A stretch of 64,000 bases of DNA from a virus: the IMG/VR virus record IMGVR_UViG_3300010392_000634, one strand, 5' to 3'. A program made the translations under genes and the position numbers. The notes under the pieces are model-generated. The model searched no databases. It saw nothing but the letters and a program-made list of their open reading frames with translations, and had not been told where the DNA came from. Of this stretch, positions 4,448-28,733 are shown one piece after another. The stretch's first letter is position 1. Every line of letters begins with the position of its first letter.

Positions 4448-4687
4448 ATGAGTTTATTATCTTTTTGGGCTGGGTCGGCTGCATTTGGAGCTTTGCTTAT
4501 CTGTATTAGTACTGTATTAAGTTTTATATTTCATGGGACTTCAGATGAAAAAGATGCCCATATTGCGTGTCTAGTCGGTTTAGGACTTATATTTGCTCCA
4601 CTTAGTATTCCTTTACTTTTGCTTATTGGGGTCATCAGGAGTTTATATTTCACTTATAAGAGTGTTATGAAAAATATTGGAGAATAG
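4448..4687 (+). CDS. small two-helix membrane protein, tandem paralog 1
   Basis: 79 aa; similar architecture and a C-terminal ...GE tail to 4690..4938. Confidence 0.5.
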   Translation: MSLLSFWAGSAAFGALLICISTVLSFIFHGTSDEKDAHIACLVGLGLIFAPLSIPLLLLIGVIRSLYFTYKSVMKNIGE

Positions 4688-4689
4688 AA

Positions 4690-4938
4690 ATGAACTTTCC
4701 TTTGTTTGCGTGGGGTGTGGCCAGCTTATTCGGTGTTGTACTAATGGGGTCATCATTATTATTTCGTATTGCAGACCAGAATATGTCTGATAAAGATAAG
4801 CACGACTGTAATTTGATAAACTTGGGTGGTATCGCTTTGCTTTTGCTGCCAGTATCAATAGTTGCGTTAGTTATTTTTGGTTTTGTGCGTGGACTATTAT
4901 TTGTTGCCTCAGAAGCTAAGAAATTTTTTGGAGAATAA
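4690..4938 (+). CDS. small two-helix membrane protein, tandem paralog 2
   Basis: 82 aa; tandem duplicate of 4448..4687. Confidence 0.5.
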   Translation: MNFPLFAWGVASLFGVVLMGSSLLFRIADQNMSDKDKHDCNLINLGGIALLLLPVSIVALVIFGFVRGLLFVASEAKKFFGE

Positions 4939-4940
4939 AA

Positions 4941-5096
4941 ATGGTTGAAGTAGTTTACTTTGCTCTTAACACTGCTAACGGTATTCTTACTAGCATTATT
5001 GGCCAGTACGGTGAGCAAATGAAAGATGAACACAGAGAAAAGATTCATCAAATTACTAGAATCCTAGATGAACTCTCGTATGAGGTACGCAAATGA
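4941..5096 (+). CDS. small hypothetical protein (51 aa)
   Basis: ATG 3 nt after the previous stop with a GGAGA RBS; below the 60-aa threshold of the ORF track. Confidence 0.35.
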   Translation: MVEVVYFALNTANGILTSIIGQYGEQMKDEHREKIHQITRILDELSYEVRK

Positions 5097-5232
5097 ATAA
5101 TGAAGTTGGCAAGATTGTATTAGAAGCTATGAATAATCTTGCAAAATCACAAGAAATTTAGCATACAGCATTGACATAAAAATCCATTACCGTATAATAC
5201 ACGTATCAACATTACTCTTACAGGAGAAACAA

Positions 5233-5661
5233 ATGCAGTTCGTGTACAATGATGGTGGTCGCACTAAAAAAAGAACGAAGAAAACTAGAGATTGTGTTGT
5301 TCGTGCTATTGCAATTGCTACTGGAAAAGATTATGATGCAGTTGCAGATGAGGTAGTTCGTAGAGCTAACAGTGCCAGACGTAATAGTAAGAAGTCTCGC
5401 TCGTGTCCAGAAAAAGGCGTGTTTCGTGAGCTATACGAGCCAATGTTAGCTGAATGGGGATGGAAGTGGGTAGCAGTTAGCGGTATTGGTACTGGTTGTA
5501 AAATGCATATGCATGCTGATGAACTGCCTGATGCTACTATCATCTGTCGAGTATCTAAACACTTGGCCTGTGTTAAACATGGTGTATTACATGACACTTA
5601 CGATTGTTCCAGAGGTGGTACAAGATGTGTCTATGGTTACTTTATTAAGGAAAACGAATGA
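5233..5661 (+). CDS. hypothetical protein, possible Cys/His hydrolase
   Basis: RBS AGGAGAAACAA; Cys in DCVVRAIA and His/Asp in HLACVKHGVLHD suggest a papain-like triad (weak). Confidence 0.5.
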   Translation: MQFVYNDGGRTKKRTKKTRDCVVRAIAIATGKDYDAVADEVVRRANSARRNSKKSRSCPEKGVFRELYEPMLAEWGWKWVAVSGIGTGCKMHMHADELPDATIICRVSKHLACVKHGVLHDTYDCSRGGTRCVYGYFIKENE

Positions 5662-6080
5662 ATAATTATATTGTAGTTGACGTTGATGGATGTGATAAAA
5701 CTCAACAGCCTGTTCAAGTCGAAGTATACACTGACATGCAAGATGCATTGAAGGCAATTGATGGTAATAAAAAGTTGCTAAAAGTATTCGTTAACAATAC
5801 ATTCCACTGCGGAATTAAAAGTGGAAGGAGTGATTTCTTTGAGTGGTCAGTTGTCGGATACTCTGATGAGTTTATCTGTGAACAGGTAAATAAATACTAC
5901 GAAAACAAAACCTATATGTTGTCCGATTTGAAATATGGTGATAAGTTTCACTTCGGTGACAGTCACACACGTGTGTTAGTTGATGCAAGTCGTATCAAGA
6001 CAAAAAATGATGATATTGTATATATGCTTGGACATGAACTACATACTATGCATGATAGAAAGTGCTGGAGGTGCAGATGA
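5658..6080 (+). CDS. hypothetical protein
   Basis: 140-aa ORF with ATGA start/stop overlap with the previous gene. Confidence 0.5.
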   Translation: MNNYIVVDVDGCDKTQQPVQVEVYTDMQDALKAIDGNKKLLKVFVNNTFHCGIKSGRSDFFEWSVVGYSDEFICEQVNKYYENKTYMLSDLKYGDKFHFGDSHTRVLVDASRIKTKNDDIVYMLGHELHTMHDRKCWRCR

Positions 6081-6472
6081 AATACTATATTAAATGTGAT
6101 TCTCAATATGTTGTATACAGTGAGCCAGACCCATATGATGATTGGGACCAAGGCGAAGATGGTTATGAGGCACACGAATTTACTGTTAGTACAGAGACTG
6201 ATGGTTACCCTGACGAAACATTTGATACAGACATAGAAAAACCTTATTTTATTGCTGTAATTTATTCCACCGGATGTACTTTTGGTACAACTTATGGCGT
6301 AGTACAATATCTCGGTCCTTTTACTAAAGAGAAGGGAGAGAAAATCCATAAACAGTTGGAAGACAGCAATGGTGATAACTATGAAGGATTAGAGGGAGAT
6401 AATAAATACTTCTATCCTTACTGGATTGGATACTTCGAAAATTATCAAGAGTCTGTCCTGTTGGAAGGATAA
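6062..6472 (+). CDS. hypothetical acidic protein
   Basis: 136-aa ORF. Confidence 0.5.
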   Translation: MLEVQMKYYIKCDSQYVVYSEPDPYDDWDQGEDGYEAHEFTVSTETDGYPDETFDTDIEKPYFIAVIYSTGCTFGTTYGVVQYLGPFTKEKGEKIHKQLEDSNGDNYEGLEGDNKYFYPYWIGYFENYQESVLLEG

Positions 6473-6473
6473 T

Positions 6474-6746
6474 ATGTTAGCAAAGAAAAATGTAAGGCAG
6501 GGCGTCCGTATCGCTTTAACCAGAACATCTCCCCAATTACAATGCACTGTAAACGGGGGCGATACTGGATACATTACACATGATTGTATTGGTACAATTA
6601 ACATCAGGCGTTATTCAGATAGGTATCTGATTGCATTTGCGGAATACGATGATGGACGTATCAAGTATTTAGGAGATACATTGGATGGTAAAAAATGGCA
6701 CTACAATGATGATACTTTGAAAAAATTCAAAATTGTTAGCGAGTAG
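6474..6746 (+). CDS. hypothetical protein
   Basis: Start moved to ATG 6474, in frame with ORF 6426..6746, directly after the previous stop. Confidence 0.45.
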   Translation: MLAKKNVRQGVRIALTRTSPQLQCTVNGGDTGYITHDCIGTINIRRYSDRYLIAFAEYDDGRIKYLGDTLDGKKWHYNDDTLKKFKIVSE

Positions 6747-6815
6747 TATTTACATATCGTCTATTATCTAGTAAGATACATACATAACAAACAACATTAC
6801 TTTTAAGGAGATGCG

Positions 6816-6968
6816 ATGAAGACTTACGTTGTAATGCAGAGTATTCGTGGATTTGTGTTCAATGCTATGGTTACTCAAGACAAAACGCAGGCACTGGAAT
6901 TCGAAGACTATGACTATATTCAAATCTGGGAAGATGGTGAATTAGTCGATACTATCGGTGAAAACTAA
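6816..6968 (+). CDS. small hypothetical protein (50 aa)
   Basis: RBS AAGGAG at 6805; not in the ORF track (<60 aa). Confidence 0.4.
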   Translation: MKTYVVMQSIRGFVFNAMVTQDKTQALEFEDYDYIQIWEDGELVDTIGEN

Positions 6969-7250
6969 TTTTTAATACATGTCATAGCCTCACAATCACG
7001 ATTAGCTCCGAAAGAACAAAAAACGGCTTAAATTGTGTTTGAGGCTTGACATTTTTCTAAGCACAACAAAAATTCATTCAAAGGTTAAATGAAGTACTTT
7101 CATGAAACTTATCTTCAGTGTAGTAGTCGCAATAACTGCTAATACGTTTTTTAAATGGTTAAACCCAGAAGCAACAAATGTTGATATGCATATATGTTTT
7201 GAATTTCACTGTTTAGTTTCTTACATGATTATAAATTATTTGGAGAAAAA

Positions 7251-7700
7251 ATGAGTACACGTTCTAATATTGGTGTCGAGATTAATGGTATTGTTAAAGC
7301 TGTATATTGTCACTTTGATGGATATCTTGATGGTGTCGGTGAAACTCTAGTTAGACATTATTCTTCTAGAGAGCTGGCAGAACAGATTGTCAACCTTGGC
7401 CATTTGAGTTGTCTGTATGAAAATTCTGGAACACCGCCAGAAGGTCATTCGCATGATAATAAATTCACAGGATACACTGTAGCCTATCATCGTGATAGGG
7501 GTGAGGCTCTTGGCTGTAACTCCTACGCGACAAGACAACAGTACCTTGAAGATACCAGAGACTCTATATTTATTGAATACACATACCTCTGGGATGATGA
7601 AAAAGGATGGATGGTATTCTCAAAATATTTTGATATTGATGAGTTTGTACCATTTGATGAAGCAAAACGTATCGAAGCCAAACTGAACGAGGAGTATTAA
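7251..7700 (+). CDS. hypothetical protein
   Basis: 149 aa; RBS GGAGAAAAA; preceded by a ~280-bp intergenic region. Confidence 0.5.
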   Translation: MSTRSNIGVEINGIVKAVYCHFDGYLDGVGETLVRHYSSRELAEQIVNLGHLSCLYENSGTPPEGHSHDNKFTGYTVAYHRDRGEALGCNSYATRQQYLEDTRDSIFIEYTYLWDDEKGWMVFSKYFDIDEFVPFDEAKRIEAKLNEEY

Positions 7701-7703
7701 TAA

Positions 7704-8042
7704 ATGTTTAGTGCATCAGAAGCATTTAGTATGGCACAAAAAGCAAATAGCGACCTGAACTATACTAAGGTACAAAAAGAGATTGCCATTGTAATAGACA
7801 GGGTAAAGAAAGCTGCCGGTGATGGTAAATATCATATCGACCTTGGATACTTCTCAGATGATTTTTTCTGGTATGAAGGAACACATAAAGAGTCTGACTT
7901 GTGGCATCAATGCTGTAAAGAACTGCGTAACTCTCCATACAATTTCAAAGTAGAGGTAAAACAAGAAAATGAGGCTGGCTGTGGTCCATATGATGTGAGT
8001 ATTAACAGACTTTACACTAGGATTTCTTGGGGAAGTGAGTAA
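7704..8042 (+). CDS. hypothetical protein
   Basis: 112-aa ORF. Confidence 0.5.
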   Translation: MFSASEAFSMAQKANSDLNYTKVQKEIAIVIDRVKKAAGDGKYHIDLGYFSDDFFWYEGTHKESDLWHQCCKELRNSPYNFKVEVKQENEAGCGPYDVSINRLYTRISWGSE

Positions 8043-8119
8043 TATCAGTTGACCCCCACTTTTTATTCTGCTATACTATATTAAAATCAAAAAACTAGAC
8101 ATAGAGGAAAAGTTGATAG

Positions 8120-8491
8120 ATGAATACACACTCTGAAATCACTGCTGAAGACTTTTTTGTGCTTTTTGGCATAATTGCAATCGTTGGATTCTTGATTTTT
8201 GGAATTGTTTCTTGTAATATAGACGACAGAGATGGACAAGAATCAGCAAGGCTCGAAAAAGAAGTTAGTATGATTCTATTACAGGAATCTACTGAAGGAT
8301 TCGAAAGAGATGATGTATGGGGAAGCCCTGTAGAATATTCATACAAAGAAACTGACACTGGATATGTCGCATCTGCTAAATCTTGTGGAAAAGATAAGGT
8401 TTATGGTACTAGTGACGATATTATCCACATGACTAAAAAACACAAGCGTGAGAAAAACATTAAACGTATGGCGGATTTCTTATTCAAATAA
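8120..8491 (+). CDS. membrane-anchored hypothetical protein
   Basis: N-terminal TM helix FFVLFGIIAIVGFLIFGIV. Confidence 0.5.
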   Translation: MNTHSEITAEDFFVLFGIIAIVGFLIFGIVSCNIDDRDGQESARLEKEVSMILLQESTEGFERDDVWGSPVEYSYKETDTGYVASAKSCGKDKVYGTSDDIIHMTKKHKREKNIKRMADFLFK

Positions 8492-8591
8492 CACGGGGAA
8501 CTCTGTGGGAGTCAGCAGCTTTCATTAGGCTGAGTGTAGCTAGGTAGCCTGCTAAGCATCTAGTGTGATGGTTCGATTCCATCCCCCGTTA
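8492..8591 (+). ncRNA. tRNA-like element (atypical, ~100 nt)
   Basis: T-arm GATGG-TTCGATT-CCATC followed by CCCCGTT; a 5' CACGGGG can pair as an acceptor stem; too long for a canonical tRNA and sits in a gene-free gap. Confidence 0.3.
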
Positions 8592-8629
8592 ATATAAATG
8601 TAACTTTGATAGTGGGGAGTATTATTGAT

Positions 8630-8788
8630 ATGAATGATTCTTTATATAAGCGTCACAACGATGGAATGCGAGATGGTACGAAATATGACAAAAAATACAA
8701 ACATCTTAGGGATATTCTGAAGCGAGAAGTAGCCAAGATTGTCTGGGAATTCGAAGAAAATCAGGAGAAAGAATCAGATGACAGTTGA
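8630..8788 (+). CDS. small hypothetical protein (52 aa)
   Basis: ATG 8630 with GGGGAG RBS; the ORF track began at a TTG at 8606. Confidence 0.4.
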   Translation: MNDSLYKRHNDGMRDGTKYDKKYKHLRDILKREVAKIVWEFEENQEKESDDS

Positions 8789-8842
8789 CACAGAAGAAAA
8801 ATATGATTATATTACTACTATTGAACAGATTTAGGAGAAAAA

Positions 8843-9016
8843 ATGTATTTATTAATTTTCGAAGACATGTCAATGCAGCAATGTGTAGAGTTTAATCCTA
8901 AGTGGATTGAATATGTTTCTGATGGATACCTATCTGTCATGAAATTTGAACATGGTAAGTTCCTTGATATGGACGAAGATGGAAGTTGGTATGAGCCAGA
9001 AGTAATTGTAGAATAG
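8843..9016 (+). CDS. small hypothetical protein (57 aa)
   Basis: RBS AGGAGAAAAA; TAG stop followed in frame by ORF 9026 with no intervening stop. Confidence 0.4.
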   Translation: MYLLIFEDMSMQQCVEFNPKWIEYVSDGYLSVMKFEHGKFLDMDEDGSWYEPEVIVE

Positions 9017-9025
9017 GATAATCAC

Positions 9026-9220
9026 ATGCTGAGTGAATGGAAAGATATTGACCTAAGTGATGGTGAAAAACTTTTCAAAGCCAAAGATGATGCTGATATA
9101 GATTACTTATGGTCTTACATTATAAAACAGTGGTGGAGAATTAAAGATTTAGAAAAACATGTCGGCGTGGCATGTAATACTGTTAACTCTTTCCTTGGGG
9201 ATAGAAATGAAGAAGCGTAA
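9026..9220 (+). CDS. hypothetical protein
   Basis: 64-aa ORF. Confidence 0.4.
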   Translation: MLSEWKDIDLSDGEKLFKAKDDADIDYLWSYIIKQWWRIKDLEKHVGVACNTVNSFLGDRNEEA

Positions 9221-9368
9221 AGAGTCTCTTGGCTCTATTAATCCAAACAAGATGAAACTGAGCATCGGGCATCAGACACGTGAATCTGGATGCGGTGTGC
9301 ATTCCAACAAGCCTAAGCGTCAACGTACCCGTCAGGCAGTACGTGATGCTGTTTTAAAGGAATGGTGA
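9207..9368 (+). CDS. small basic protein (53 aa)
   Basis: Start moved to ATG 9207, in frame with ORF 9159..9368; Lys/Arg-rich. Confidence 0.4.
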   Translation: MKKRKESLGSINPNKMKLSIGHQTRESGCGVHSNKPKRQRTRQAVRDAVLKEW

Positions 9369-9369
9369 T

Positions 9370-9771
9370 ATGAGTCCTAATATTGATGTAGACAGTCTGC
9401 AAGTAGGAGATGCTGTGGGACACCAGCCATCAGGTATATGGTATATGAATGCATCTTGTTATGTTAGCACAGTTGAACGGATGACTAAGACTCAGATTAT
9501 TCTTGCAAATGGACGTAAGTTCAACAAACATGGCCGGGAATTAAAGTCTCCAGTGACAGATGTTCCAAGCCATAAATTGATTCATCCAGACTATGCTAGG
9601 GAATACATCGCAAAAGCAAAACGTAAGTCAGAAGTTTTTGCTATTCTTAAACAAGTCGAGGCTTTGTGTACTCGTGTTCGTAGCAACAGCTATGAGCTGT
9701 CAGACGAGCAGGAAGAACTGTTCTTTAATCTATTAATCAACTTTGAAACATGTGAGGACGACCAACAATGA
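9370..9771 (+). CDS. hypothetical protein
   Basis: 133-aa ORF. Confidence 0.5.
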   Translation: MSPNIDVDSLQVGDAVGHQPSGIWYMNASCYVSTVERMTKTQIILANGRKFNKHGRELKSPVTDVPSHKLIHPDYAREYIAKAKRKSEVFAILKQVEALCTRVRSNSYELSDEQEELFFNLLINFETCEDDQQ

Positions 9772-9971
9772 TTTTCTGGTTCTGTGTATTTGCTTATTTT
9801 GTGTGTGGACTTACGTATGTTATTGGTATTGTTACATGTCCAGAACATATTGTAAAACATAGTATTTCTAAGTTAATTCTTGGATTTATTATTTCTCCAG
9901 TTTCGCTTGCTGCTTTTTTACTGGCGATTCCTCATTTTATTGTTTCCTCATTTTTACAGGCTATTGACTAA
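9768..9971 (+). CDS. small membrane protein
   Basis: 67 aa with two hydrophobic helices. Confidence 0.45.
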   Translation: MIFWFCVFAYFVCGLTYVIGIVTCPEHIVKHSISKLILGFIISPVSLAAFLLAIPHFIVSSFLQAID

Positions 9972-11429: not shown

Positions 11430-11438
11430 GAGGTAAAT

Positions 11439-14335: not shown

Positions 14336-15196
14336 ATGAAACTACTGATTCCAACATGTGATGCCAGCCTTTTTCTTCTGCCATTATATGAACACTTGTT
14401 TAACAAGTACGAGCTAGGTTCTATCTTTGAGCCTGTTGTACTTGGTTTTACTGAACCTAAAGATTGTGGTATGGAATTTGTGTCAATGGCAGACAAACAG
14501 GATTGTTGGTCCCGACATATATACGATTATCTCAATTCTATTTCAGATGAGTATGTAGCCTTCACTCTCGAAGACTTCTTGCCTGTAAGTAGAGTAGACG
14601 CTGAATCATTCCACTCATTGATGGCTGCAATGTTGTCTGGTAATGTTGGTCGTGCGGACCTAACGTGGGATTTGTATGCAAATTGTGAAACACAGGTATA
14701 TAATACTCTTGAAGATAAACCTTACAGTTTAATCTCGTGTCCGCGTGACGGACGTATGGTAGAGGGTAAGTCTTTATATCGTATTACTACACAGCCTGCT
14801 ATATGGCGACGTGATTACCTGATGAAGTTTCTGAAAAACGAATGGACACCTTGGAATTTTGAGATTGATGGGTCTTCACTATCTTCTCAGTTCCCAGAGG
14901 AAGTTATCGGTATTTGTGACCCAACTTTTAAACATTATCCTACTAAATGGACGCCTAAAGGTGCGATTAGTCGTGCTCAACCGGGAAAATTCAATTGCTT
15001 AGGGATGGATATTGAAACCATTAAAGAGTGTATTGAACTGGGATACTTAAAAGAGGAAGACTTAATCTGGGGCATGTGGGTTGGTAATCCAGTTACATTT
15101 CATGGTGGTGGTGGATATAACTTCACTGTAGATAGGATGCCTTTCCATTCTGCAAGTCCTACTAACTGGGAAGAATGGAGAAGTACTTATGAGTAA
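14336..15196 (+). CDS. hypothetical protein
   Basis: 286-aa ORF with no recognisable motif. Confidence 0.55.
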   Translation: MKLLIPTCDASLFLLPLYEHLFNKYELGSIFEPVVLGFTEPKDCGMEFVSMADKQDCWSRHIYDYLNSISDEYVAFTLEDFLPVSRVDAESFHSLMAAMLSGNVGRADLTWDLYANCETQVYNTLEDKPYSLISCPRDGRMVEGKSLYRITTQPAIWRRDYLMKFLKNEWTPWNFEIDGSSLSSQFPEEVIGICDPTFKHYPTKWTPKGAISRAQPGKFNCLGMDIETIKECIELGYLKEEDLIWGMWVGNPVTFHGGGGYNFTVDRMPFHSASPTNWEEWRSTYE

Positions 15197-15428
15197 TATT
15201 CTATTAACATACTTTACATTTATGGCCATACTTGGATGGATATCTTTTGCTGTGCTATCAAATGAATATTTTGTACTTGAAAGTGATGAGGCCAAAGCTG
15301 GTGTAATTTTAGGTTCTATTTTTTGGCCAATCGGAATTTTTCTTGGTGTTTGCTATTGCATTTTTAAATGTTTTATGGTATTTTACCGTCTGTACAATAA
15401 ATATGCAACTAACTTTTTGAAAGACTAA
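15189..15428 (+). CDS. small two-helix membrane protein, FWPIGI family
   Basis: Contains SIFWPIGIFLGV. Confidence 0.5.
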   Translation: MSNILLTYFTFMAILGWISFAVLSNEYFVLESDEAKAGVILGSIFWPIGIFLGVCYCIFKCFMVFYRLYNKYATNFLKD

Positions 15429-19357: not shown

Positions 19358-19582
19358 ATGAGTTGGTTTTTAGTTGTAGTTTATATTCTAGTAGTAGTCC
19401 CTATTGTATATGAGTGCTACCATGAAGATTCTCGTTCAATGGAAGAGATTGTTGGCAAATACACTTTGGCAGCATTGTGGCCTATCGCTGTATGTGCTCT
19501 TTTTATCGGAATAGTTGGCTCAGTGTACTACGAGATTTATTCTGACATTTCTGATAAAATTGACAAAGACTTGGAGAATTGA
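19358..19582 (+). CDS. small membrane protein
   Basis: RBS AGGAGAAAAAAG; start moved to ATG 19358. Confidence 0.45.
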   Translation: MSWFLVVVYILVVVPIVYECYHEDSRSMEEIVGKYTLAALWPIAVCALFIGIVGSVYYEIYSDISDKIDKDLEN

Positions 19583-19618: not shown

Positions 19619-19816
19619 ATGATTACAAACCCAGTTTTGATGGAACTGTACGACGCGGCACTATGCTTTATTTTCATGTATCTTGGCATCTGCTGCATTT
19701 TTTGGTTTTCTGACTATCTAAAATCGAAGTCAGAAATGAAAGATGAATATGACTTCTCGAATGGGGAGCGTGGAAAATTTTACAATGAGAAGGAGAAAGA
19801 AGATGGCAGAAAATAA
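19619..19816 (+). CDS. small membrane protein
   Basis: 65-aa ORF with a hydrophobic segment. Confidence 0.35.
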   Translation: MITNPVLMELYDAALCFIFMYLGICCIFWFSDYLKSKSEMKDEYDFSNGERGKFYNEKEKEDGRK

Positions 19817-19997
19817 CTCTAATTCTGGAGGTATCGGATTCTGCGGTTTGCTTGGTATCGTGTTTATTACACTCAAGTTGACTGGATTTATTAACTGGTC
19901 TTGGTGGTGGGTTTTGGCACCGCTGTGGGGACCAATCGTGTTTGTGTTAGCTTTTCTGGCTATCGCTTTTGGAATCTTGTGGATGTTTGATAAGTAG
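19803..19997 (+). CDS. small two-helix membrane protein
   Basis: RBS AAGGAGAAAGAAG; start at ATG 19803. Confidence 0.45.
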   Translation: MAENNSNSGGIGFCGLLGIVFITLKLTGFINWSWWWVLAPLWGPIVFVLAFLAIAFGILWMFDK

Positions 19998-20539: not shown

Positions 20540-21001
20540 ATGGAACATTATTTAGCTGTTGTTGAAGCATCAAAAGCGTACGAAAAAGCAAAGCAATTGG
20601 TATTCGATGTATACTATGAATCTACTATCAAGAATTTAGAAAAGGCTTTTCAGGAGCTGTTTGATACATATCCTCAGTTGACTGCATTCGACTGGCGACA
20701 GTATGTTCCTTCATTTAATGATGGAGATGCATGTTATTTTACAGTCAATAACTGGGGAACATGTTGGTTCACTGTAGATGGAGTCACTTTTGATGTTGGC
20801 GACTATGCAGATTATGAAGAGTATGATTATAATACAGCTAAGTCTGTTCTAAAACAAAACGGACTTGATGAGGTCGGTAACGAAATATGTTGCTTGATTG
20901 GTGCTGTTCCATATGATATCATGGAGAAGCGTTTTGGAACTTATTCTCATGTAAAGGTTACCCGTGAAGGAATTGAGGAGGATGAATACTATGATTATTA
21001 A
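20540..21001 (+). CDS. hypothetical protein
   Basis: RBS GAGGAAAA; start at ATG 20540. Confidence 0.5.
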   Translation: MEHYLAVVEASKAYEKAKQLVFDVYYESTIKNLEKAFQELFDTYPQLTAFDWRQYVPSFNDGDACYFTVNNWGTCWFTVDGVTFDVGDYADYEEYDYNTAKSVLKQNGLDEVGNEICCLIGAVPYDIMEKRFGTYSHVKVTREGIEEDEYYDY

Positions 21002-21380
21002 TAAAGAAAATATCAACTCATATGAATACACTAACGTTATGGTAGGACCATTAACTTTTACCTTAATTCCTTTTCTGATTGGTGCTTTACCTATTATATT
21101 TGAATCACCAACATTCTTGTGGTTTGCTTTCTGGTCATTCCTCTTGTTTTTTCTTTCTGCTTTATTTGGATTTATTGCCGGATGCATTGGGCTTTCTAGT
21201 ACTGGTGGATATGGCAATGATATGCTAGTAGATAGAATTCCACGCTCTGAATCAATCACGTATATTGTCTGTTGTACTATCTTTCCTTTACTGTGGATTG
21301 CTCTATTTATTGGATGTGTAAAAGGATTGTTACGGCCACTGTCACATATTTTTAAGTCTTTGATGAAGGAAGAAAAATGA
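20982..21380 (+). CDS. two-helix membrane protein, FWP-family-like
   Basis: RBS GAGGAGG; C-terminal motif TIFPLLWIALFIG. Confidence 0.5.
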   Translation: MNTMIINKENINSYEYTNVMVGPLTFTLIPFLIGALPIIFESPTFLWFAFWSFLLFFLSALFGFIAGCIGLSSTGGYGNDMLVDRIPRSESITYIVCCTIFPLLWIALFIGCVKGLLRPLSHIFKSLMKEEK

Positions 21381-22585
21381 ACAGGCGAGAATTTTTAGGT
21401 GTAACTAGCTTAGGTGTACTTGGTGTCGGTCTTAGTTTCGGTAATGTATCTGTTTCTGAAGAGCAGAAGAAAAAGGGGAGCGTGATTTACATCACACTTG
21501 GTGGTGGTGCTTCACACGTTGAGTTCTTCAATCCTGCTCCAGATGCTCCATCAGAGTATCGCTCAGTTACTGGTAACATCTATACTAATACGCCGGGATT
21601 ACACTTTGGTAGTCTTATGCCTAATCTGGCCAAAATGTCAGACCAGTTTACAGTAGTAAAATCATTCACTCATCGTGACTTCAACCACGCTAGTGCAACA
21701 CACTTAGTTCAAACAGGAAAATATAATACACGTACTCCTGATACACAAACATGGCCAAGTTATGGGAGTGTTGTAAGCGAACAACTTGGTGCTGTTGGTA
21801 AGACTGGGCTACCTAGTTATATCAAACTGAACAAGACAGACCATGACGGGGCTGCTTGGCTAGGATTAGACCATTCTGGTTTCAATGCATCTAAGGAAGG
21901 TTTAGGCGACATGATTATGAAGGTGTCCGAAGAGAGATTCCTTCGCCGTGAGCAAATGTTGTCAGAGATTGATAAGAGTGGCAATATTCGTGACCCTTGG
22001 CTTAAGTTGCGTGACCAAGCTGTGGGTGTTTTAATGGGTGATGCATCAAAAATCTTCAACATTACCAAAGATACGATGTACAATGACTATAAAGACTCTC
22101 AGTTCGGCAAAGACTTGTTAACTGCCAGACGTCTTGTTCAAGGTGGAGCTGCTTTTGTTAAAGTCAGTAATCCGGGCTGGGATATGCACTCTAATATCGA
22201 GTCTGGACTAAAATCTAAACAAGGTGAGATTGATAAGTATCTTGCTATCCTTATTTCTGACTTAGAGAATAAGGGTCTTAATGAAGACGTGTTAGTTGTA
22301 TTCACCACAGAGTTTGGAAGGACACCGAAGATTAATCCTCAGTCTGGACGTGACCATTGGGCAAAAGTGTGTAATCTGATGCTTTATGGTGGAAGATACA
22401 ACGGTGGATTCATTGGAGAAGTTGACAGAACCTCAAGTGAGGTAGTTAGCGAACCAGTAACACCTGCTGACTTATGTAAGACTGTGCTAGACCATTGTGG
22501 TATTGCTGACAATGCACATACTATTGATAATTTGCAACGTCCTAGAATGTTTGTAGAAGATACAGCTAAAATAATTGGAGTATGA
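21377..22585 (+). CDS. Tat-signal secreted protein, DUF1501 / sulfatase-superfamily-like (tentative)
   Basis: N-terminus MNRREFLGVTSLGVLGV carries a twin-arginine motif; 402 aa; the family assignment is from memory and is weak. Confidence 0.5.
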   Translation: MNRREFLGVTSLGVLGVGLSFGNVSVSEEQKKKGSVIYITLGGGASHVEFFNPAPDAPSEYRSVTGNIYTNTPGLHFGSLMPNLAKMSDQFTVVKSFTHRDFNHASATHLVQTGKYNTRTPDTQTWPSYGSVVSEQLGAVGKTGLPSYIKLNKTDHDGAAWLGLDHSGFNASKEGLGDMIMKVSEERFLRREQMLSEIDKSGNIRDPWLKLRDQAVGVLMGDASKIFNITKDTMYNDYKDSQFGKDLLTARRLVQGGAAFVKVSNPGWDMHSNIESGLKSKQGEIDKYLAILISDLENKGLNEDVLVVFTTEFGRTPKINPQSGRDHWAKVCNLMLYGGRYNGGFIGEVDRTSSEVVSEPVTPADLCKTVLDHCGIADNAHTIDNLQRPRMFVEDTAKIIGV

Positions 22586-22847
22586 TATGAGTACTATTAT
22601 CTGGTTTTTTGTAATTTCTTGCATACTTAGTCTTGTATTTTTTCTGCTGGCCTGCTATTATCTTAATATGGGACACGGCAATAGAAAAATAATTGACAGC
22701 TACACTCGTTATCAAGTGTGCAAGATTATTGCTGGTTCAATTTTTTGGTGGGTTACTTTTTTTGTTGTGATTCGTAAGTGCTATACATCAATAAGCAAAC
22801 CAGTGACAAACGTGTTTAAATATGTCGTAGGAGATAATGATGAATAA
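22575..22847 (+). CDS. small membrane protein
   Basis: 90-aa hydrophobic ORF. Confidence 0.45.
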   Translation: MEYDMSTIIWFFVISCILSLVFFLLACYYLNMGHGNRKIIDSYTRYQVCKIIAGSIFWWVTFFVVIRKCYTSISKPVTNVFKYVVGDNDE

Positions 22848-23196
22848 AGTTGATGGTGATTTGATTGGTCCTTGGGTGTGTACTGTATTATTGAATCTAA
22901 TTGTATCTCTTATTGTTGTGGCTATATGTGCTCCAGTATCGACAATCGTAGGGTTTTTAATTTTATTCTCTGTCTGGTTTATTCCATCTGGTATTATTTG
23001 CTTTGTGTTTTCTGCACATGAAATCACGGCGAATAGTAATCATTATACAAAAAAAGACGCTTGGGAAATTAGCTTATTTTCACTTTTTTGGCCAATTGGT
23101 ATTATGATTTTATTAACGTATGCTTTGATTCTAGCATGCAAGCCAATTGGTGGACTTTTACAGAAGTTGGGGTTGCAAGATGAACGTACCAAATAA
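22837..23196 (+). CDS. membrane protein, FWPIGI family
   Basis: Contains LFWPIGIMILL. Confidence 0.5.
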   Translation: MMNKVDGDLIGPWVCTVLLNLIVSLIVVAICAPVSTIVGFLILFSVWFIPSGIICFVFSAHEITANSNHYTKKDAWEISLFSLFWPIGIMILLTYALILACKPIGGLLQKLGLQDERTK

Positions 23197-23707
23197 AGAT
23201 TATGTTATAATCAATGCCCTTTTTGGGTTTTTCCCATTAGTTTTATTTTTTTTATTTTGTATCATATTCTTGTTCTTGGATATTGGCTTGCCGTTATTTG
23301 TACTCTTGTTGTTATTTGTCATTGCAGCTTATAGTGCAAGCGTGATATCACTTATTGTCTCTGCATGTTATCATATACATACTTCAAGAGTAGACTATGA
23401 CCTTGAAAAACCTCGACTTGATGATTACAGAGACGGTTATGACCACGATTGGGGTAAATACAATGTTGATGTAGCAGAATATGAAGCTACAAGAAAATAT
23501 GCACCAATCGAAAAAATGAGTAGAACAGACGTTATTAAACTAATGGTTACATTGACATTTTGGCCAGTATTTGTGTTAAAATGTATTTTTGACTGGCTTG
23601 TATCATTATTTAACCCAATTATCAAAACTTTTGTTTATATTATAGGAGAAAAGAATGAAGGCGATTCGGATGCCGAAGATAGAACAGTTTCGGACAGTAG
23701 TCAGTAA
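23180..23707 (+). CDS. membrane protein, FWP family
   Basis: Contains TFWPVFVLKCIF; start at ATG 23180. Confidence 0.5.
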   Translation: MNVPNKDYVIINALFGFFPLVLFFLFCIIFLFLDIGLPLFVLLLLFVIAAYSASVISLIVSACYHIHTSRVDYDLEKPRLDDYRDGYDHDWGKYNVDVAEYEATRKYAPIEKMSRTDVIKLMVTLTFWPVFVLKCIFDWLVSLFNPIIKTFVYIIGEKNEGDSDAEDRTVSDSSQ

Positions 23708-24719
23708 CATCAAGCGTACAGCTCAATTTGTTGGGCTGGATGAAAATGGAGATGCTATTGTTGATAGAGATGCCAAGATGCCAACAGTTACTTTTACTGG
23801 TACTGTAAAACTACATGGAACTAATGCATCTATTGTAAGAACTTCTGATGGTCAGATTTATCCCCAGTCTAAGACTAATGTTATTAGCATGGAAAAAGAT
23901 AATGCTGGCTTTGCTCAGTTTGTCCACTCTAATCACGAAGTACTTAAGGACATGTTGGACTGTATTGCATACGACCTAGAACGCAATGCAGCTATGTATA
24001 AAACTCCATGTGAGTTTGACCCTGAGTCTAGTATTACAGTTTATGGAGAATGGGCTGGTGGAAACATTCAAAAAGGATGTTCTTTAAATGGTCTAGATAA
24101 GATGTTCTTCATTTTTGCTTGTAAAGTTACCCCAAACGATGAAGAAAAGCAGTCTTACTGGATTCAATCTGGGCATCAACATATTAGACCAAGCCGACAC
24201 GATGACATCAATACTCATAACATTTATGACTTTGATACATATACAATTGATATCGATTTTAACGAGCCGGACTTATTTACTGAAGAGCTTGAGCGTATCA
24301 CTCTTGCTGTAGAGGAAGAGTGTCCTGTCGCTAAGATGTTCGGTGTCGAGAAAGGTGTTGGTGAGGGTGTAGTATGGACTGGTTGGTACAATGGTAACAT
24401 CTATAGATTCAAGGTTAAGGGAGAAAAGCACTCAGTAACTAAGGTTAAGAAGTTGGTTGTTGTAGCTCCTGAAAAGATTGAGTCTATGCAAAAGTTTGTT
24501 GAGTATGCCTGCACGCGTAACCGTTATGAGCAGGCCATCAATGAAGTTATCGGTGATGAAGAAAAGGCGATGAACCGTCTTGGTGATGTCATTCGATGGG
24601 TCCAGAAAGATATTATTGATGAAGAAACTGATGTTTTGACTGAATCTGGCTTGACACACAAAGATGTAGCGAGTAGAATTGCTACACAGGTCAGAACATG
24701 GTATCAGTCTGAATTATAA
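23655..24719 (+). CDS. RNA ligase, T4 Rnl2-like family
   Basis: Nucleotidyltransferase motif I KLHGTN; N-terminal domain typical of Rnl2; RBS AGGAGAAAAGA. Confidence 0.6.
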   Translation: MKAIRMPKIEQFRTVVSNIKRTAQFVGLDENGDAIVDRDAKMPTVTFTGTVKLHGTNASIVRTSDGQIYPQSKTNVISMEKDNAGFAQFVHSNHEVLKDMLDCIAYDLERNAAMYKTPCEFDPESSITVYGEWAGGNIQKGCSLNGLDKMFFIFACKVTPNDEEKQSYWIQSGHQHIRPSRHDDINTHNIYDFDTYTIDIDFNEPDLFTEELERITLAVEEECPVAKMFGVEKGVGEGVVWTGWYNGNIYRFKVKGEKHSVTKVKKLVVVAPEKIESMQKFVEYACTRNRYEQAINEVIGDEEKAMNRLGDVIRWVQKDIIDEETDVLTESGLTHKDVASRIATQVRTWYQSEL

Positions 24720-24736
24720 AAAAATGGAGAGTAACT

Positions 24737-24934
24737 TTGAGTTTAATATTTGAAAGTATTGATTCTGAAGGAAATGACGCTGAGATGCGTGCTACAAGAG
24801 TTCCATATGGAACTGATAGGCGTGATAGATTACGTATTAGCGTTTCTCTTCCGTGGAACGATGGTCCACGTGACATTGAACTCACTAGAAAACAAGCCGA
24901 TGAACTAGTTAAACTGATTGGAGAAATGCAATGA
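24737..24934 (+). CDS. hypothetical protein (TTG start)
   Basis: 65-aa ORF with GGAGAG RBS. Confidence 0.35.
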   Translation: MSLIFESIDSEGNDAEMRATRVPYGTDRRDRLRISVSLPWNDGPRDIELTRKQADELVKLIGEMQ

Positions 24935-25254
24935 TTATTGACAGTAAAACAAAACGTGTAGTTGACTGCTTTCGTTCAGACGACTATGCTGGACTTGAGT
25001 ATGGTGACTATGCCTTCTATTATGGTTACGAAGAGACTGTTCCTAAGCACGATTTAGAAAATGGTGAGTGGGCTTTCGTTGCCGACTACAAAGGTAATGA
25101 GTTGTGTCGTCTGACTGTAGATGATTTTAAAGAATATGTTTGTAGAAATACATTCGAAAGGCTTGACAAATGGAATGTTGAGCATGTATTATTAACCGGA
25201 GTTGGAATTGTTTTAAATAACGAAAAATTTCACCCAGAAAGAAAGGCAATGTAA
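24931..25254 (+). CDS. hypothetical protein
   Basis: 107-aa ORF. Confidence 0.5.
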   Translation: MIIDSKTKRVVDCFRSDDYAGLEYGDYAFYYGYEETVPKHDLENGEWAFVADYKGNELCRLTVDDFKEYVCRNTFERLDKWNVEHVLLTGVGIVLNNEKFHPERKAM

Positions 25255-25610
25255 TGAAATGTTTCCCAGAATCAGTTGGCGTTTTTGGTCCCGTTTTGTC
25301 CCTCACAGCAAGTTTAATTTGTTTTGTAACTCTATTTGAGGCTAGTCTCATTGGTGTACTGTTTTTGCTGGTTGCAATCAGTTGCTTCAATTTGTTAGCT
25401 GCGATTCTATTTTTTACTTCTGAGTCATTATGTAGTAGTAGTCCACGTATTAATGATTACAATAAAGTTACAGTTGCTACAGTATTATTTTCTTCTGTAT
25501 GCTGGCCAATCGGAATCTTAATTGGACTATTTGCTCTGCTCAAAGTTGCTGCAGGACCACTTATGTTAGTTGTTAATAAGTTTGCAGATACTAAGTCAGA
25601 TACAGAGTAA
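25254..25610 (+). CDS. membrane protein, FWPIGI family
   Basis: Contains VCWPIGILIGLF. Confidence 0.5.
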   Translation: MKCFPESVGVFGPVLSLTASLICFVTLFEASLIGVLFLLVAISCFNLLAAILFFTSESLCSSSPRINDYNKVTVATVLFSSVCWPIGILIGLFALLKVAAGPLMLVVNKFADTKSDTE

Positions 25611-25638
25611 AATCTCAATTATATAGAAAGAATTAAAA

Positions 25639-26763
25639 GTGAAACCAGTTAAAATTTACGCTGAAAATATTGAAGAGACAGCATTAGAGCAGTTTAATTC
25701 AGCTTTAGAGTTGGATTGTGTCACTCGTGCTGCACTTATGCCTGACGCTCATACTGGGTACAGCCTACCAATTGGTTCTGCTGTTGAGTCTGACCAGATT
25801 GTTTTTCCAAGTTGGGTTGGATATGATATCGGTTGTGGTATGTCTGCAATCCCCACCAGCTTCACGAAAGAAAAGGTAGAACAGAACTCAAAAGATATTT
25901 TTCATCAGATTTATCGTGATGTTCCTACTGGATTCACTGAGCATGACGATAAGCAGTTTTGGAATGAGGCTACTCATTTCGATGCTACACCTGAGCTAGA
26001 AGAACGATTCTGGACTGGAAATGCACAGAACCAGCTTGGTACTCTTGGTGGTGGTAACCACTTCATTGAAGTAGGATACGATGAGAACAATCAGGTATGG
26101 ATTATCATTCACTCTGGTTCTCGTAAGCTGGGACATCGTACTGCTGAGCGATATATGAAAATTGCTGCTGGACAGGACCCAGAAGACCGGAAGAAAGCAA
26201 AAGAAGGTCACTACGGTTTCGCTGTTGATTCAGAAAATGGTGAGAATTACATCAAGGACTTGAATTACTGTTTACAGTATGCTTTAGCAAACCGTCGTCA
26301 TATGATTGAGAATGTTATTCAAAGCATCTCACGTAAAGTAGGTGGCGGCTATGGAGAATGGGACCGTTTCATCAATCGTAACCACAACCATGCCGAGGAC
26401 CGTAAAGACGATGGTAAATGGATTCATCGTAAGGGTGCTACACATGCTGAGAGTGGCATGGACGGTGTTATTCCGGGCAATATGCGTGATGGTTCCTTCA
26501 TCGTAGTTGGTAAGGGTAATCCAGACTCTCTGTATTCCAGTTCTCATGGAGCTGGGCGTGTACTCTCTCGTAGTAAGGCACGTAAGACTCTGAATGTCGA
26601 TGACTTCGTTAAAGATATGGAAGGTATCACTGCTCGCGTTGAAGAGAAAACTCTTGATGAGTCTAGTAGTGCCTATAAAAACATCTTTGAGGTGATGGAC
26701 CTACAGAAAGACTTAGTCAATGTTGTTACTCACGTCAAGCCAATTATCAATGTGAAGGGATAA
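25639..26763 (+). CDS. rtcB: RNA-splicing ligase RtcB
   Basis: GGGNHFIEVG, HSGSR and HNHAED motifs; 374 aa; GTG start. Confidence 0.8.
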   Translation: MKPVKIYAENIEETALEQFNSALELDCVTRAALMPDAHTGYSLPIGSAVESDQIVFPSWVGYDIGCGMSAIPTSFTKEKVEQNSKDIFHQIYRDVPTGFTEHDDKQFWNEATHFDATPELEERFWTGNAQNQLGTLGGGNHFIEVGYDENNQVWIIIHSGSRKLGHRTAERYMKIAAGQDPEDRKKAKEGHYGFAVDSENGENYIKDLNYCLQYALANRRHMIENVIQSISRKVGGGYGEWDRFINRNHNHAEDRKDDGKWIHRKGATHAESGMDGVIPGNMRDGSFIVVGKGNPDSLYSSSHGAGRVLSRSKARKTLNVDDFVKDMEGITARVEEKTLDESSSAYKNIFEVMDLQKDLVNVVTHVKPIINVKG

Positions 26764-26765
26764 TA

Positions 26766-26927
26766 ATGGAAATTGGAACTGACCATGATGGCAATAAAAT
26801 AGAGATGAATGTCAAAAAGGAAAGTGATGCAGTCTACCGATTCACTGTCGGGAATCATGGCGTATACACTAATATAGATGGTATATTGAGAATCATCGAC
26901 TATATAAAAGAAAGTATCTCAGAATGA
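26766..26927 (+). CDS. small hypothetical protein (53 aa)
   Basis: Fills the gap between rtcB and the next gene with an ATGA overlap. Confidence 0.4.
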   Translation: MEIGTDHDGNKIEMNVKKESDAVYRFTVGNHGVYTNIDGILRIIDYIKESISE

Positions 26928-27316
26928 AAATTTTAAATGAATTAAAAAATGATGCAGAGACGCGATGTTTCTTCTTCTGGTTTGGATTACTTGTAACAGC
27001 AATTGGTTTTGGATTGGCGGCCATTGCCACTAGCTTGATTTTTTTCTTGCCAAAATTATTGACTTTGGTTTTGTGTTTTGCCATGGTTTGTCCTTTTCTC
27101 GGATTTGTGTTTGCCTGTTTGATTACTCATGATACTCGTGAATCAGAAACAAGAGAAGAGGTTGGTGCAGTATTACTTGTATGTACTTTTTATCCCATTA
27201 CATGGTTATATATTGTAGTTTCTGCTATATTTCCATTGTTTAACAATTTTATGTACTGCCTCAAGTCAATGAGAGATACAGTAATGTATGTAATTGAAGG
27301 GAAAACAGATGAATAA
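26924..27316 (+). CDS. membrane protein, FWP-family-like
   Basis: Contains FYPITWLYIVV. Confidence 0.5.
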   Translation: MKILNELKNDAETRCFFFWFGLLVTAIGFGLAAIATSLIFFLPKLLTLVLCFAMVCPFLGFVFACLITHDTRESETREEVGAVLLVCTFYPITWLYIVVSAIFPLFNNFMYCLKSMRDTVMYVIEGKTDE

Positions 27317-27776
27317 GTTCTGGTATGGAATTTCTGTAACATTTGTTTTGTGTGTTGTTGGAGTATTTTCACATGCTGAACCTATCGATGCACCAAAACC
27401 TTTTGTTTCAGAACAAGTCAATTTTGGCATTATATTTCCGGGTAAGGTAATTAATGTTGTTGATGGTGATACAGTTGATGTAGAAGTAAGACGCGTAATC
27501 CGTATTCGTATGTTAGACTGTTGGGCACCAGAATCACGCACAAAAGATTTAGCAGAGAAAAAAGAGGGTCTGGAAGCAAAGGCTGAGCTGGCAAAAATTA
27601 TTAGTGGTCGCAAAGTAGTCGTACAGGTTCCTATTGGTAGAGATGCTAGATTTGGTGAGTCTATGACTTTTGACCGTGTTCTTGGACGAATTATTGACGA
27701 AGAAACACGTCTTGATTACTCTAAGTATATGGTACAGCACGGCTTCGCAACTAAAAATAAGGAAAAAGATGATTAA
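27309..27776 (+). CDS. secreted thermonuclease (staphylococcal-nuclease-like)
   Basis: Signal peptide followed by VVDGDTVDVE ... RIRMLDCWAPE, the SNase Ca-binding and catalytic motif. Confidence 0.6.
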   Translation: MNKFWYGISVTFVLCVVGVFSHAEPIDAPKPFVSEQVNFGIIFPGKVINVVDGDTVDVEVRRVIRIRMLDCWAPESRTKDLAEKKEGLEAKAELAKIISGRKVVVQVPIGRDARFGESMTFDRVLGRIIDEETRLDYSKYMVQHGFATKNKEKDD

Positions 27777-28377
27777 ATACGTTAAAGGGGACTTATTTGA
27801 TTTTGTCAATCAGACTGAATCGGAATACGATGTTACTTTTATTCCACATATTGTCAATACGTATGGATATTGGGCGTCTGGTTTTGTTTGTGCAGTAGAG
27901 TCACATTGCCCAGCAGCCAAGAGTCGTTATGACTCCTTGTTTGAAGGCGTTCATGCTCCATATGATTACGGCGAAGCAAATAAATGGCTTCTAGGTATGA
28001 ACCAGATTGTGTTCACCAACACTCGGAGTACTGCAATTATCAATATGTTCGCTCAGTTATTCGGTGGTGATAGACCATTAAGATACAATGCACTTACAAA
28101 GTGTATGGATAGCATAGGAGACTCAGTGCAGACATCTGAACATAAAGTTCGCATTGTAGCTCCTATGTTTGGGAGCCTTCGGGCTGGAGGAAATTGGGAT
28201 TTTATTGAGAAATTAGTAGAAGATTGCTGGATTTCTCGCGGTATTGATACTACAATAGTAGAGTACATACACAAACAAATTAAGAGTCAATGCCAAAAGT
28301 GCAACAAACAAGAGAAGCCTTTGTTTCGTATGTCAAATACTTTGTATTACTGTAGGGAATGTTATTCAGAAAGGTAG
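27769..28377 (+). CDS. macro-domain protein (ADP-ribose 1''-phosphate / O-acetyl-ADP-ribose processing family)
   Basis: GDLF ... IPHIVNTYGYWASGF resembles the macro-domain ligand-binding motifs; C-terminal Cys cluster. Confidence 0.5.
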   Translation: MIKYVKGDLFDFVNQTESEYDVTFIPHIVNTYGYWASGFVCAVESHCPAAKSRYDSLFEGVHAPYDYGEANKWLLGMNQIVFTNTRSTAIINMFAQLFGGDRPLRYNALTKCMDSIGDSVQTSEHKVRIVAPMFGSLRAGGNWDFIEKLVEDCWISRGIDTTIVEYIHKQIKSQCQKCNKQEKPLFRMSNTLYYCRECYSER

Positions 28378-28379
28378 TC

Positions 28380-28733
28380 ATGGACTATAAATTAGCAGAT
28401 GCTATTCAAACAACACTCTTTTGGGTCGGATTAGGTGTATTTGTTCTGTGTTTTCTGGCATGTACCCCTATACCATTTATACTCATAACATGGCCAATCT
28501 TAGCTATTATTTCTTCTACTTATTATTGTATTGGGCTAGTAGCAAAAAAAAGATATGATGATGTACCAAGAGATATTGAACAGGTTACTAAACTAGAAGT
28601 TATTACGATTCTTTTTTGCTGCTTTTTCTGGCCAGTTGCTTTGCCCTGTTTGGGGGTATATCTAATCGGATGCATGATATCTTTTCTATGCAAGCCATTT
28701 AAAGAGGTGTTTGAATTTTTAATTAAGGAGTAG
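28380..28733 (+). CDS. membrane protein, FWP family
   Basis: Contains CFFWPVALPCLG. Confidence 0.5.
   Translation: MDYKLADAIQTTLFWVGLGVFVLCFLACTPIPFILITWPILAIISSTYYCIGLVAKKRYDDVPRDIEQVTKLEVITILFCCFFWPVALPCLGVYLIGCMISFLCKPFKEVFEFLIKE

Follow-up and report, generated by a model that had tools for sequence, protein, structure and literature searches.

The 64,000 nucleotides of IMG/VR virus record IMGVR_UViG_3300010392_000634, hereafter the window, encode a family of small predicted membrane proteins that share a C-terminal module carrying a Phe-Trp-Pro (FWP) motif. By sequence comparison we count eight certain family genes and one probable one, and the eight are almost certainly true paralogues. 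An expanded phage-encoded family of this kind had been proposed from the DNA letters alone (here called the original prediction), and that proposal is supported; every open reading frame (ORF) that it named is present on the plus strand at the position it gave. Its figure of ten or more copies was too high, having taken in a tandem pair at 4448/4690 and four unrelated small transmembrane (TM) ORFs.

An all-versus-all phmmer comparison of every window ORF of at least 40 residues (ORFs are named here by their first position) linked 15189 with 25254 and 22837; 28380 with 20982, 22575 and 23180; and 4448 with 4690. The C-terminal ~60 residues of seven candidates align in a co-linear pattern, and a seven-member hidden Markov model (HMM) picked up 26924-27316 as an eighth (25.8 bits, E = 1.6e-7), all other ORFs scoring 6.8 bits or less. 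Leave-one-out HMMs, each built from the other seven, recovered all eight members at 18.5–28.1 bits, versus at most 7.6 bits for the best non-member ORF and at most 12.3 bits for the best of 3,840 shuffled ORFs. The eight comprise the five ORFs first regarded as clearest (15189, 22837, 25254, 28380 and 23180), which are homologous by phmmer as well, the two proposed relatives 26924 and 20982, and 22575, whose start we revise to 22587. The pattern [FC]WP[IV] occurs five times in the window, against 0.12 expected and a maximum of two in 2,000 within-protein shuffles; all five occurrences lie inside family ORFs, and there are none in the other five reading frames.

The nine genes are as follows, with orthogroups that were defined from pairwise scores; bit scores are from the leave-one-out HMMs unless stated otherwise.

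15189..15428, plus strand: orthogroup 1 member, 79 residues, two TM helices, motif IFWPIGI (23.3 bits)
19358..19582, plus strand: probable divergent member of orthogroup 2, 74 residues, two TM helices, motif ALWPIAV (13.3 bits, E = 1.2e-3, against the profile described below)
20982..21380, plus strand: orthogroup 3 member, ~129–132 residues, three TM helices, motif TIFPLLW (18.5 bits)
22587..22847, plus strand: orthogroup 4 member, 86 residues, two TM helices, motif IFWWVTF with Trp for Pro (28.1 bits)
22837..23196, plus strand: orthogroup 5 member, 119 residues, three TM helices, motif LFWPIGI (21.1 bits)
23180..23707, plus strand: orthogroup 6 member, 175 residues, two N-terminal TM helices followed by a loop and the module, motif TFWPVFV (23.1 bits)
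25254..25610, plus strand: member upstream of RtcB, 118 residues, three TM helices, motif VCWPIGI (21.4 bits)
26924..27316, plus strand: orthogroup 7 member with a longer tail, 130 residues, three TM helices, motif TFYPITW (25.8 bits, E = 1.6e-7, from the HMM built without it)
28380..28733, plus strand: member immediately upstream of a BCS1-like AAA ATPase, 117 residues, three TM helices, motif FFWPVAL (27.3 bits)

Gene 19358, which had also been proposed, is probably a ninth member on the strength of its score against a third-iteration profile of 37 sequences that excluded it (shuffle maximum, 8.9 bits). Its case is marginal in that it was at noise against the first two profiles (6–8 bits) and reached an hhalign probability of 33%. 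Its syntenic orthologue in a related phage contig (L005 5109-5354; phmmer E = 4e-4), where the flanking genes are orthologous too, scores 23.7 bits against the family profile.

Other small membrane ORFs that had been counted as members fall outside the family, among them the tandem pair.

4448-4687 and 4690-4938, plus strand: tandem pair of two-TM paralogues, not family members (phmmer E = 5e-8 to each other, 35% identity)

Against the family profile this pair reaches 4–7 bits, with an hhalign probability of 4%, and no relatives but itself were found among 5.8 billion proteins; by these comparisons it is a second, independent orphan pair. ORFs 1597, 3285, 9768 and 19803 score 7 bits or less, within shuffle noise (hhalign probability 0.7–4.3%, the tandem pair included), and ORF 11877 is also at noise. 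The 64-residue two-TM protein encoded at 19803-19997 has a Trp-rich segment, NWSWWWVLAPLWGP; it is kept in related phages (L002 and L005, 88–123 bits) and is unrelated to the FWP family.

The anatomy of the module, which spans ~55 C-terminal residues, was read from column counts over 29 copies. It opens with (I/V)-(E/D)-x-(Y/M)-(S/T)-(K/R)-x-(D/E), in which the basic position is K/R in 27/29 copies and the acidic one D/E in 22/29. About ten hydrophobic residues, often with Cys at −3, lead to the motif, whose columns hold Phe in 22/29, Trp in 24/29 (aromatic in 29/29) and Pro in 24/29, with Trp in place of Pro in the 22587 subgroup; this Pro does not vary among the 19 aligned three-TM members, which come from the window and related phages. 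The motif is thus conserved in position, as had been proposed, but it does not stand at the start of a helix: ~8–11 residues of the last hydrophobic stretch precede FWP, which sits about a third of the way along a helix of ~27 residues. After FWP come ~17 hydrophobic residues and a (K/E)-P turn, the tail Pro (23/28) lying ~21 residues downstream of the motif. The module ends in a short amphipathic helix with a conserved Phe (19/27) and a mean hydrophobic moment of 0.50, versus ~0.28 for shuffles. Homology extends upstream to the end of the preceding TM helix, where a Cys, usually in A-C-Y/F/V, stands 30–31 residues before the Trp in 12/34 members; a second Cys stands 2–4 residues before the Trp in 16/34. 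The two Cys would lie at similar membrane depth on neighbouring helices.

Every member has two or three hydrophobic segments, with 19-residue Kyte-Doolittle peaks of 2.0–2.9, and the proteins are accordingly predicted to insert into the host inner membrane. Hydropathy and AlphaFold2 (AF2) models give two TM helices to 15189, 22587 and 19358 and three, two N-terminal plus the module helix, to the other six, so that the description of the family as two-helix proteins suits only a minority. The N-terminal TM hairpin is conserved in composition only. The AF2 model of 23180, made from a 21-sequence alignment (mean predicted local distance difference test score, pLDDT, 82.5; predicted template modelling score, pTM, 0.57), has helices at residues 7-32, 37-67 and 115-126, a break at W-P and a further helix at 128-156, with a confidently modelled loop domain of ~45 residues. 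That of 22837 (pLDDT 81, pTM 0.43) has helices at 10-61 and 72-110, the latter one long module helix. A crude positive-inside count places the K/R-rich pre-module loop of most three-TM members in the cytoplasm and the acidic tail outside. For orthogroup 1 the count gives the opposite orientation. The earlier assignment of the tail to the cytoplasm is therefore unsupported.

The loop of 23180 has features of its own. Residues ~60–115 include a conserved C-Y-H-I-H at the end of TM helix 2 and a D-H-D in the loop, which AF2 modelled at pLDDT >90 from five orthologues; as speculation, the loop could be a small metal-binding juxtamembrane domain.

The window consists of densely packed phage-type genes of ~38% G+C, all on the plus strand; ~128 ORFs cover 88% of it and overlap at 57/127 gene junctions. 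Family members are interspersed with enzyme genes, as had been noted: those for DUF1501, RNA ligase, RtcB, a secreted SNase and the BCS1-like AAA ATPase. The coordinates of four of these are as follows.

21377..22585, plus strand: DUF1501 enzyme (sulfatase-like superfamily) with the twin-arginine signal MNRREFLGV (Pfam PF07394, E = 2.9e-70)
23655-24719, plus strand: RNA ligase, between family members (Pfam PF09414)
25639-26763, plus strand: RtcB, between family members (Pfam PF01139)
28736..30013, plus strand: BCS1-like AAA ATPase with a BCS1_N membrane anchor, directly after member 28380 (PF08740, PF00004)

Starts and stops of members overlap or abut their neighbours (−4, +1, −11, −17 and −53 nucleotides). 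Gene 15189 overlaps the end of a 286-residue gene (14336-15196) by 8 nucleotides. The stop of 20982 overlaps the DUF1501 start (ATGA), its own start codon being uncertain between 20964, 20982 and 20991, and 22587 starts 1 nucleotide past the DUF1501 end. Gene 22837 overlaps 22587 by 11 nucleotides, and the last ~17 codons of 23180, whose product has a conserved soluble loop of ~50 residues, overlap the RNA ligase gene. Gene 26924 lies downstream of RtcB.

Embedded ribosome-binding sites explain the C-terminal Glu that had been taken for a family feature. The last residue is Glu in 17% of the ~128 window proteins, versus 7% Glu overall, and a core Shine-Dalgarno (SD) sequence (GGAG, GAGG or AGGA) lies in the final 24 nucleotides of 61/127 genes, versus 12.8% of interior windows. 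Glu and Lys are thus enriched at protein C-termini because the SDs of downstream genes lie in the last codons of upstream ones. Embedded SDs are seen after 4448 (4680-4692, ...GGAGAATAG(AA)ATG), at the 22587/22837 junction (22830-22847, GGAGATAATGATG) and in 23180 at the RNA ligase start (23640-23660, GGAGAAAAAAATG), where the SD encodes the pseudo-motif G-E-K-N. The C-terminal Glu is a genome-wide by-product of these embedded ribosome-binding sites and not a family trait. This calls for caution in annotation: where phage genes are tightly packed, an acidic C-terminus (G-E, E-K-N) that looks conserved can reflect the ribosome-binding site of the following gene and not a protein motif.

Nonsynonymous (dN) and synonymous (dS) divergence was compared between the window and its closest relative, Logan ERR7460770 (L001, L002).

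23180 module: dN 0.14, dS 0.59 (dN/dS ~0.24)
23180 loop: dN 0.15, dS 0.79
23180 N-terminal TM helices: dN 0.55, dS saturated
20982 module: dN 0.20, dS 0.98
RNA ligase, for comparison: dN 0.02, dS 0.72

Identity between 23180 and its orthologue is 34% over the N-terminal third and 76–83% over the rest; the last 17 codons are identical because of the overlapping ligase gene. These values indicate that the members are real, moderately fast-evolving proteins with a conserved core of loop and module under purifying selection. The codons for the motif Pro vary among paralogues (CCA, CCT, CCC). As motif codons differ in this way, the similarity is not that of a DNA repeat, a source further ruled out by orthologue dN well below dS.

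The family was found in one clade of phages. An exhaustive hmmsearch of 1.84 billion representative proteins with the module profile gave 16 hits at E ≤ 1e-3, which, P0018 excepted, were the window's own proteins or small relatives with the FWP motif. The contigs looked up for these hits were all of related phages, except for the 967-nucleotide contig of P0019, which is uninformative. P0018 is a repeat protein (KSAFKPIISVFESVIT x5) whose match was confined to the tail of the profile, and we treated it as spurious. A word-indexed search of 5.8 billion proteins agrees (five hits), and word-indexed searches with family alignments gave only the window's own proteins and a few orthologues. On these searches the family is confined to one clade of large uncultured phages, with 4–12 copies each. 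Megablast of 20.9–29 kb against 50,697 deposited phage genomes gave no close relative of the window (the sole match is 48 nucleotides in RtcB), and a 9-kb stretch of the window occurs in JGI metagenome 3300010430. The longest related contig measures 165.6 kb, so that the window belongs to a large uncultured phage. The related contigs are:

L001/L002 (ERR7460770, short contigs): 20982, 22837 and 23180 each have an orthologue, in unchanged order
Lineage A, L005 (SRR12022142, 69.7-kb contig): nine members
Lineage B, L008 (NILS19-1 scaffold, 84.6 kb): DUF1501 directly followed by a run of four overlapping members
Lineage C, L011/L013 (SRR20820733, 165.6-kb contig): 11–12 members, with runs of four and three

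The overlapping tandem runs in these relatives are presumably translationally coupled. Seven orthogroups recur.

Orthogroup 1, 15189 type, always behind a 286–288-residue gene: L005 335-577, L005 577-825, L011 4215-4454
Orthogroup 2, 19358 type: L005 5109-5354
Orthogroup 3, 20982 type: P0005 and P0016, the latter being L005 7033-7422
Orthogroup 4, 22587 type, with FWW: P0010, P0013, P0014, L008 8930-9202
Orthogroup 5, 22837 type: L005 9648-10001, P0015
Orthogroup 6, 23180 type, with the long loop: P0004, P0011, P0012, P0017
Orthogroup 7, 26924 type, with the long tail, always behind RtcB: P0009, L005 11616-12011, L011 15692-16126

Two members stand outside these seven: 25254, whose closest relatives are in phage C (L011 12200-12547 and 11823-12191, at 34 and 25 bits), and 28380, which has only weak matches (22 bits or less). 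The recurrence of separate orthogroups in related phages indicates that the duplications are old and the copies retained, and such retention argues for non-redundant roles. The ancestral state looks like a tandem array into which RNA ligase, RtcB and DUF1501 were inserted at different places in each lineage.

Library searches returned little. Pfam gave nothing at E < 0.01 for the family, and NCBIfam nothing common to its members. The best match in a PDB sequence profile search was the complex I subunit NDUFB1, at E = 0.67, PDB fold searches were empty or generic, and the best match in a BFVD fold search had E = 2.3. Among PHROGs the best matches were 3772, 24104 and 19627 (E = 0.0026–0.012 for 22837 and 28380, the best being 0.0026–0.0044, and 0.043 for 25254), over a TM hairpin. 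These too are small phage proteins with no functional annotation; they match inconsistently between paralogues, and at 15–19 bits, in the range expected of hydrophobic composition. Our literature search on phage DUF1501, small membrane protein paralogues and jumbo phage TM paralogues found nothing relevant.

As no library recognises the family, its function must be inferred. The reading that we tentatively favour, at rather less than even likelihood, is that the FWP module is a shared interaction surface. Through it the paralogues would co-assemble into hetero-oligomeric inner-membrane complexes, or would all bind the same membrane partner, of phage or host origin. What sets the paralogues apart would lie in the variable N-terminal helices and loops, by which each would alter the envelope of the infected host in its own way: it might control permeability, exclude competitors or support co-encoded exported or membrane enzymes. 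Any one such role is, taken singly, unlikely. The observations to be explained are the conserved helix with its amphipathic tail and conserved polar boundary residues, the fast-evolving N-terminal hairpin, the many non-redundant copies and their tight, often overlapping, tandem packing. Taken as a whole, we regard an orphan family with such an interaction module as the best explanation, with moderate confidence.

Several points weigh against the interaction-surface reading. No known homologue links the family to a function, and the case for co-assembly draws solely on the shared module and gene packing; the packing is weak evidence for it because genes are tightly packed throughout the window (overlaps at 57/127 junctions). 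The tertiary arrangement in the AF2 models is of low confidence (pTM 0.43–0.57). The positive-inside orientation is opposite for orthogroup 1, and some long-loop members, such as P0017, have a stretch behind W-P that is too polar to form a standard TM helix.

A bolder form of the same idea, which we consider distinctly unlikely, has the phage build a hetero-oligomeric inner-membrane assembly of a kind not described before. The paralogues would be its subunits, joined by their FWP helices and amphipathic tails, and it would work with the DUF1501 enzyme exported by twin-arginine translocation (Tat), the BCS1-like, translocase-type AAA ATPase and an SPFH protein encoded in the same region. Such an assembly might form a channel or a scaffold, or mark out a micro-domain of the membrane, and if it exists the clade carries its own multi-component envelope-remodelling machine.

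Among the alternatives, the one that fares best, while still unlikely, is an array for superinfection exclusion or inter-phage competition in which each paralogue, seated in the inner membrane, blocks DNA entry or membrane steps of a different competitor, in the manner of T4 Imm and Sp or P22 SieA, and the N-terminal helices give specificity. Small polytopic inner-membrane proteins in an accessory region would suit such a role, as would the fast evolution of the N-terminal TM helices (34% identity vs ~80% for the rest; dN 0.55) and a copy number that differs among related phages, from 4 to 12. The conservation of orthogroups and of their order, with the module under purifying selection, fits fixed non-redundant roles better than arms-race turnover, and Pfam, PHROGs and NCBIfam hold no match of the superinfection exclusion (Sie) or Imm type.

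That the proteins are membrane partners or anchors for neighbouring enzymes—the Tat-exported DUF1501, the secreted SNase and the BCS1-like AAA ATPase—seems improbable, to about the degree of the assembly just described. The DUF1501 gene is kept in four of four related phage lineages and is bordered in each, on one side or both, by a family member; in the window, 20982 overlaps its start and 22587 follows its end by a single nucleotide. Likewise, 28380 directly precedes the membrane-anchored AAA gene, orthogroup 1 always follows the 286–288-residue gene, and orthogroup 7 always follows RtcB. However, the whole region is syntenic, so that conserved adjacency carries little weight, and the density of members makes adjacency expected by chance. 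The enzyme beside a given orthogroup differs from one related phage to another, and the orthogroup beside DUF1501 also varies: orthogroup 3 lies upstream of it in the window and L005, and inside the array in L011. A strict pairing of orthogroups with enzymes was accordingly rejected, orthogroup 3 adjoining DUF1501 in two lineages and not in L011. RNA ligase and RtcB, moreover, are cytoplasmic RNA-repair enzymes with no obvious need of an anchor, and they shift relative to the members.

A holin-, antiholin- or pinholin-like part in lysis timing is the least likely of the four roles first suggested and, in our view, highly improbable. The small size, two or three TM helices and charged C-terminal tail recall such proteins, but each genome has 9–12 conserved non-redundant paralogues, ten candidates gave no Pfam or PHROG holin family at E ≤ 1, and the charged C-terminus is largely a by-product of embedded SDs. 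No endolysin or spanin was found among the neighbours scanned; those identified are DUF1501, RNA ligase, RtcB, SNase, a phosphatase-like protein, the BCS1-like AAA ATPase, ThyX and an HD domain protein, and several small neighbouring ORFs carry no annotation. Finally, an artefact of hydrophobic composition, or of a DNA or RNA element repeated at gene 3' ends, can be virtually dismissed: TM proteins often match spuriously, and the extreme C-terminal G-E/K-N is indeed shaped by the downstream SD and start codon (as by GGAGAAAAAAATG in 23180), yet neither the shuffled and reversed controls nor any other TM ORF of the window comes near the leave-one-out scores, polar positions (K/R 27/29, D/E 22/29) and aromatic ones are conserved, motif codons vary synonymously among paralogues with orthologue dN well below dS, and the conserved module reaches ~45 residues upstream of the SD-encoding end.

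The wider setting of the family is an accessory region that includes radical-SAM enzymes, an NAD-dependent epimerase, several glycosyltransferases and an HD phosphohydrolase, together with DUF1501, RNA ligase, RtcB, a signal-peptide SNase, a phosphatase-like protein, the membrane-anchored BCS1-like AAA ATPase, ThyX, an SPFH protein and an ATP-grasp protein. Neither the DUF1501 protein nor a 765-residue trypsin-like protein had a tblastn match among the phages searched (50,697 deposited genomes for DUF1501), and scans of IMG/VR found no relatives of the RNA ligase or the BCS1-like AAA ATPase. Proteins without annotation in phiKZ-like jumbo Pseudomonas phages, Noxifer and phiTE share ~30–33% identity with the latter (28736-30013), which 198 phage records match. 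The gene just upstream of that for the SPFH/Band-7 protein (34360-35379) encodes a small two-TM protein (34109-34363), an NfeD/SPFH-like arrangement that is kept in L005; this pair is another membrane-organising module of the same phage. ThyX is intact in the window (30010-30963); in phage A (L005 14399-16237) an intein that includes a NUMOD4 homing-endonuclease region splits it. A scan of 14–30 kb for promoters and terminators was at background (60 vs 56.7 and 6 vs 8.4, respectively).

Further downstream, 26 tRNA genes and a transfer-messenger RNA gene (49574-49871, tag peptide AKQFAIAA) are arrayed at 47036-59860, all on the plus strand, with HNH endonuclease genes within the array at 49886-50431 and 56247-56771. 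Together with the upstream RtcB, RNA ligase and HD phosphohydrolase, this array suggests heavy investment in tRNA supply and repair. The tRNA at 51328-51401 has the anticodon CTA, is labelled 'Pyl' by ARAGORN and is a potential amber suppressor. TAG still serves as the stop codon of 28/128 window ORFs, and the window thus shows no sign of recoding; late genes outside it could use TAG differently.

Of all that phage genomes encode, small membrane proteins are the least understood. The family described here is new at the sequence level, and lineage-specific multi-copy families of small membrane proteins are already familiar from other large phages. With a 55-residue module, 4–12 non-redundant copies per genome and orthogroups shared across at least four related large phages, it offers a tractable way into the reorganisation of the host inner membrane by large phages. 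Co-assembly of the copies, or a single partner common to them, would make the family a phage membrane machine of a new kind, and a role in exclusion would make it a new modular Sie family.

Holins, antiholins and pinholins (class II, S21) resemble the family in size, in having two or three TM helices and in their hydrophilic, charged C-terminal end. The family differs in its many copies, in matching no holin family, in having no lysis genes found nearby and in owing its charged end to SDs. T4 Imm and Sp, P22 SieA and lactococcal Sie2009 are small inner-membrane superinfection-exclusion proteins with one to three TM segments. Like the family they are encoded among accessory or early phage genes, and these known proteins act on the host envelope. 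They are single-copy, unlike a family with 9–12 paralogues, a common C-terminal module and conserved orthogroups, and share no sequence or profile similarity with it. The hli (high-light-inducible) genes of cyanomyoviruses encode single-TM, host-derived proteins with a chlorophyll-binding motif, whereas the FWP proteins have two or three TM helices, no cellular homologue among 1.84 billion proteins and no known ligand. The hli products are nonetheless the nearest precedent for the family: they too are very small TM proteins of which a large phage keeps several copies, some of them in tandem, among its accessory genes.

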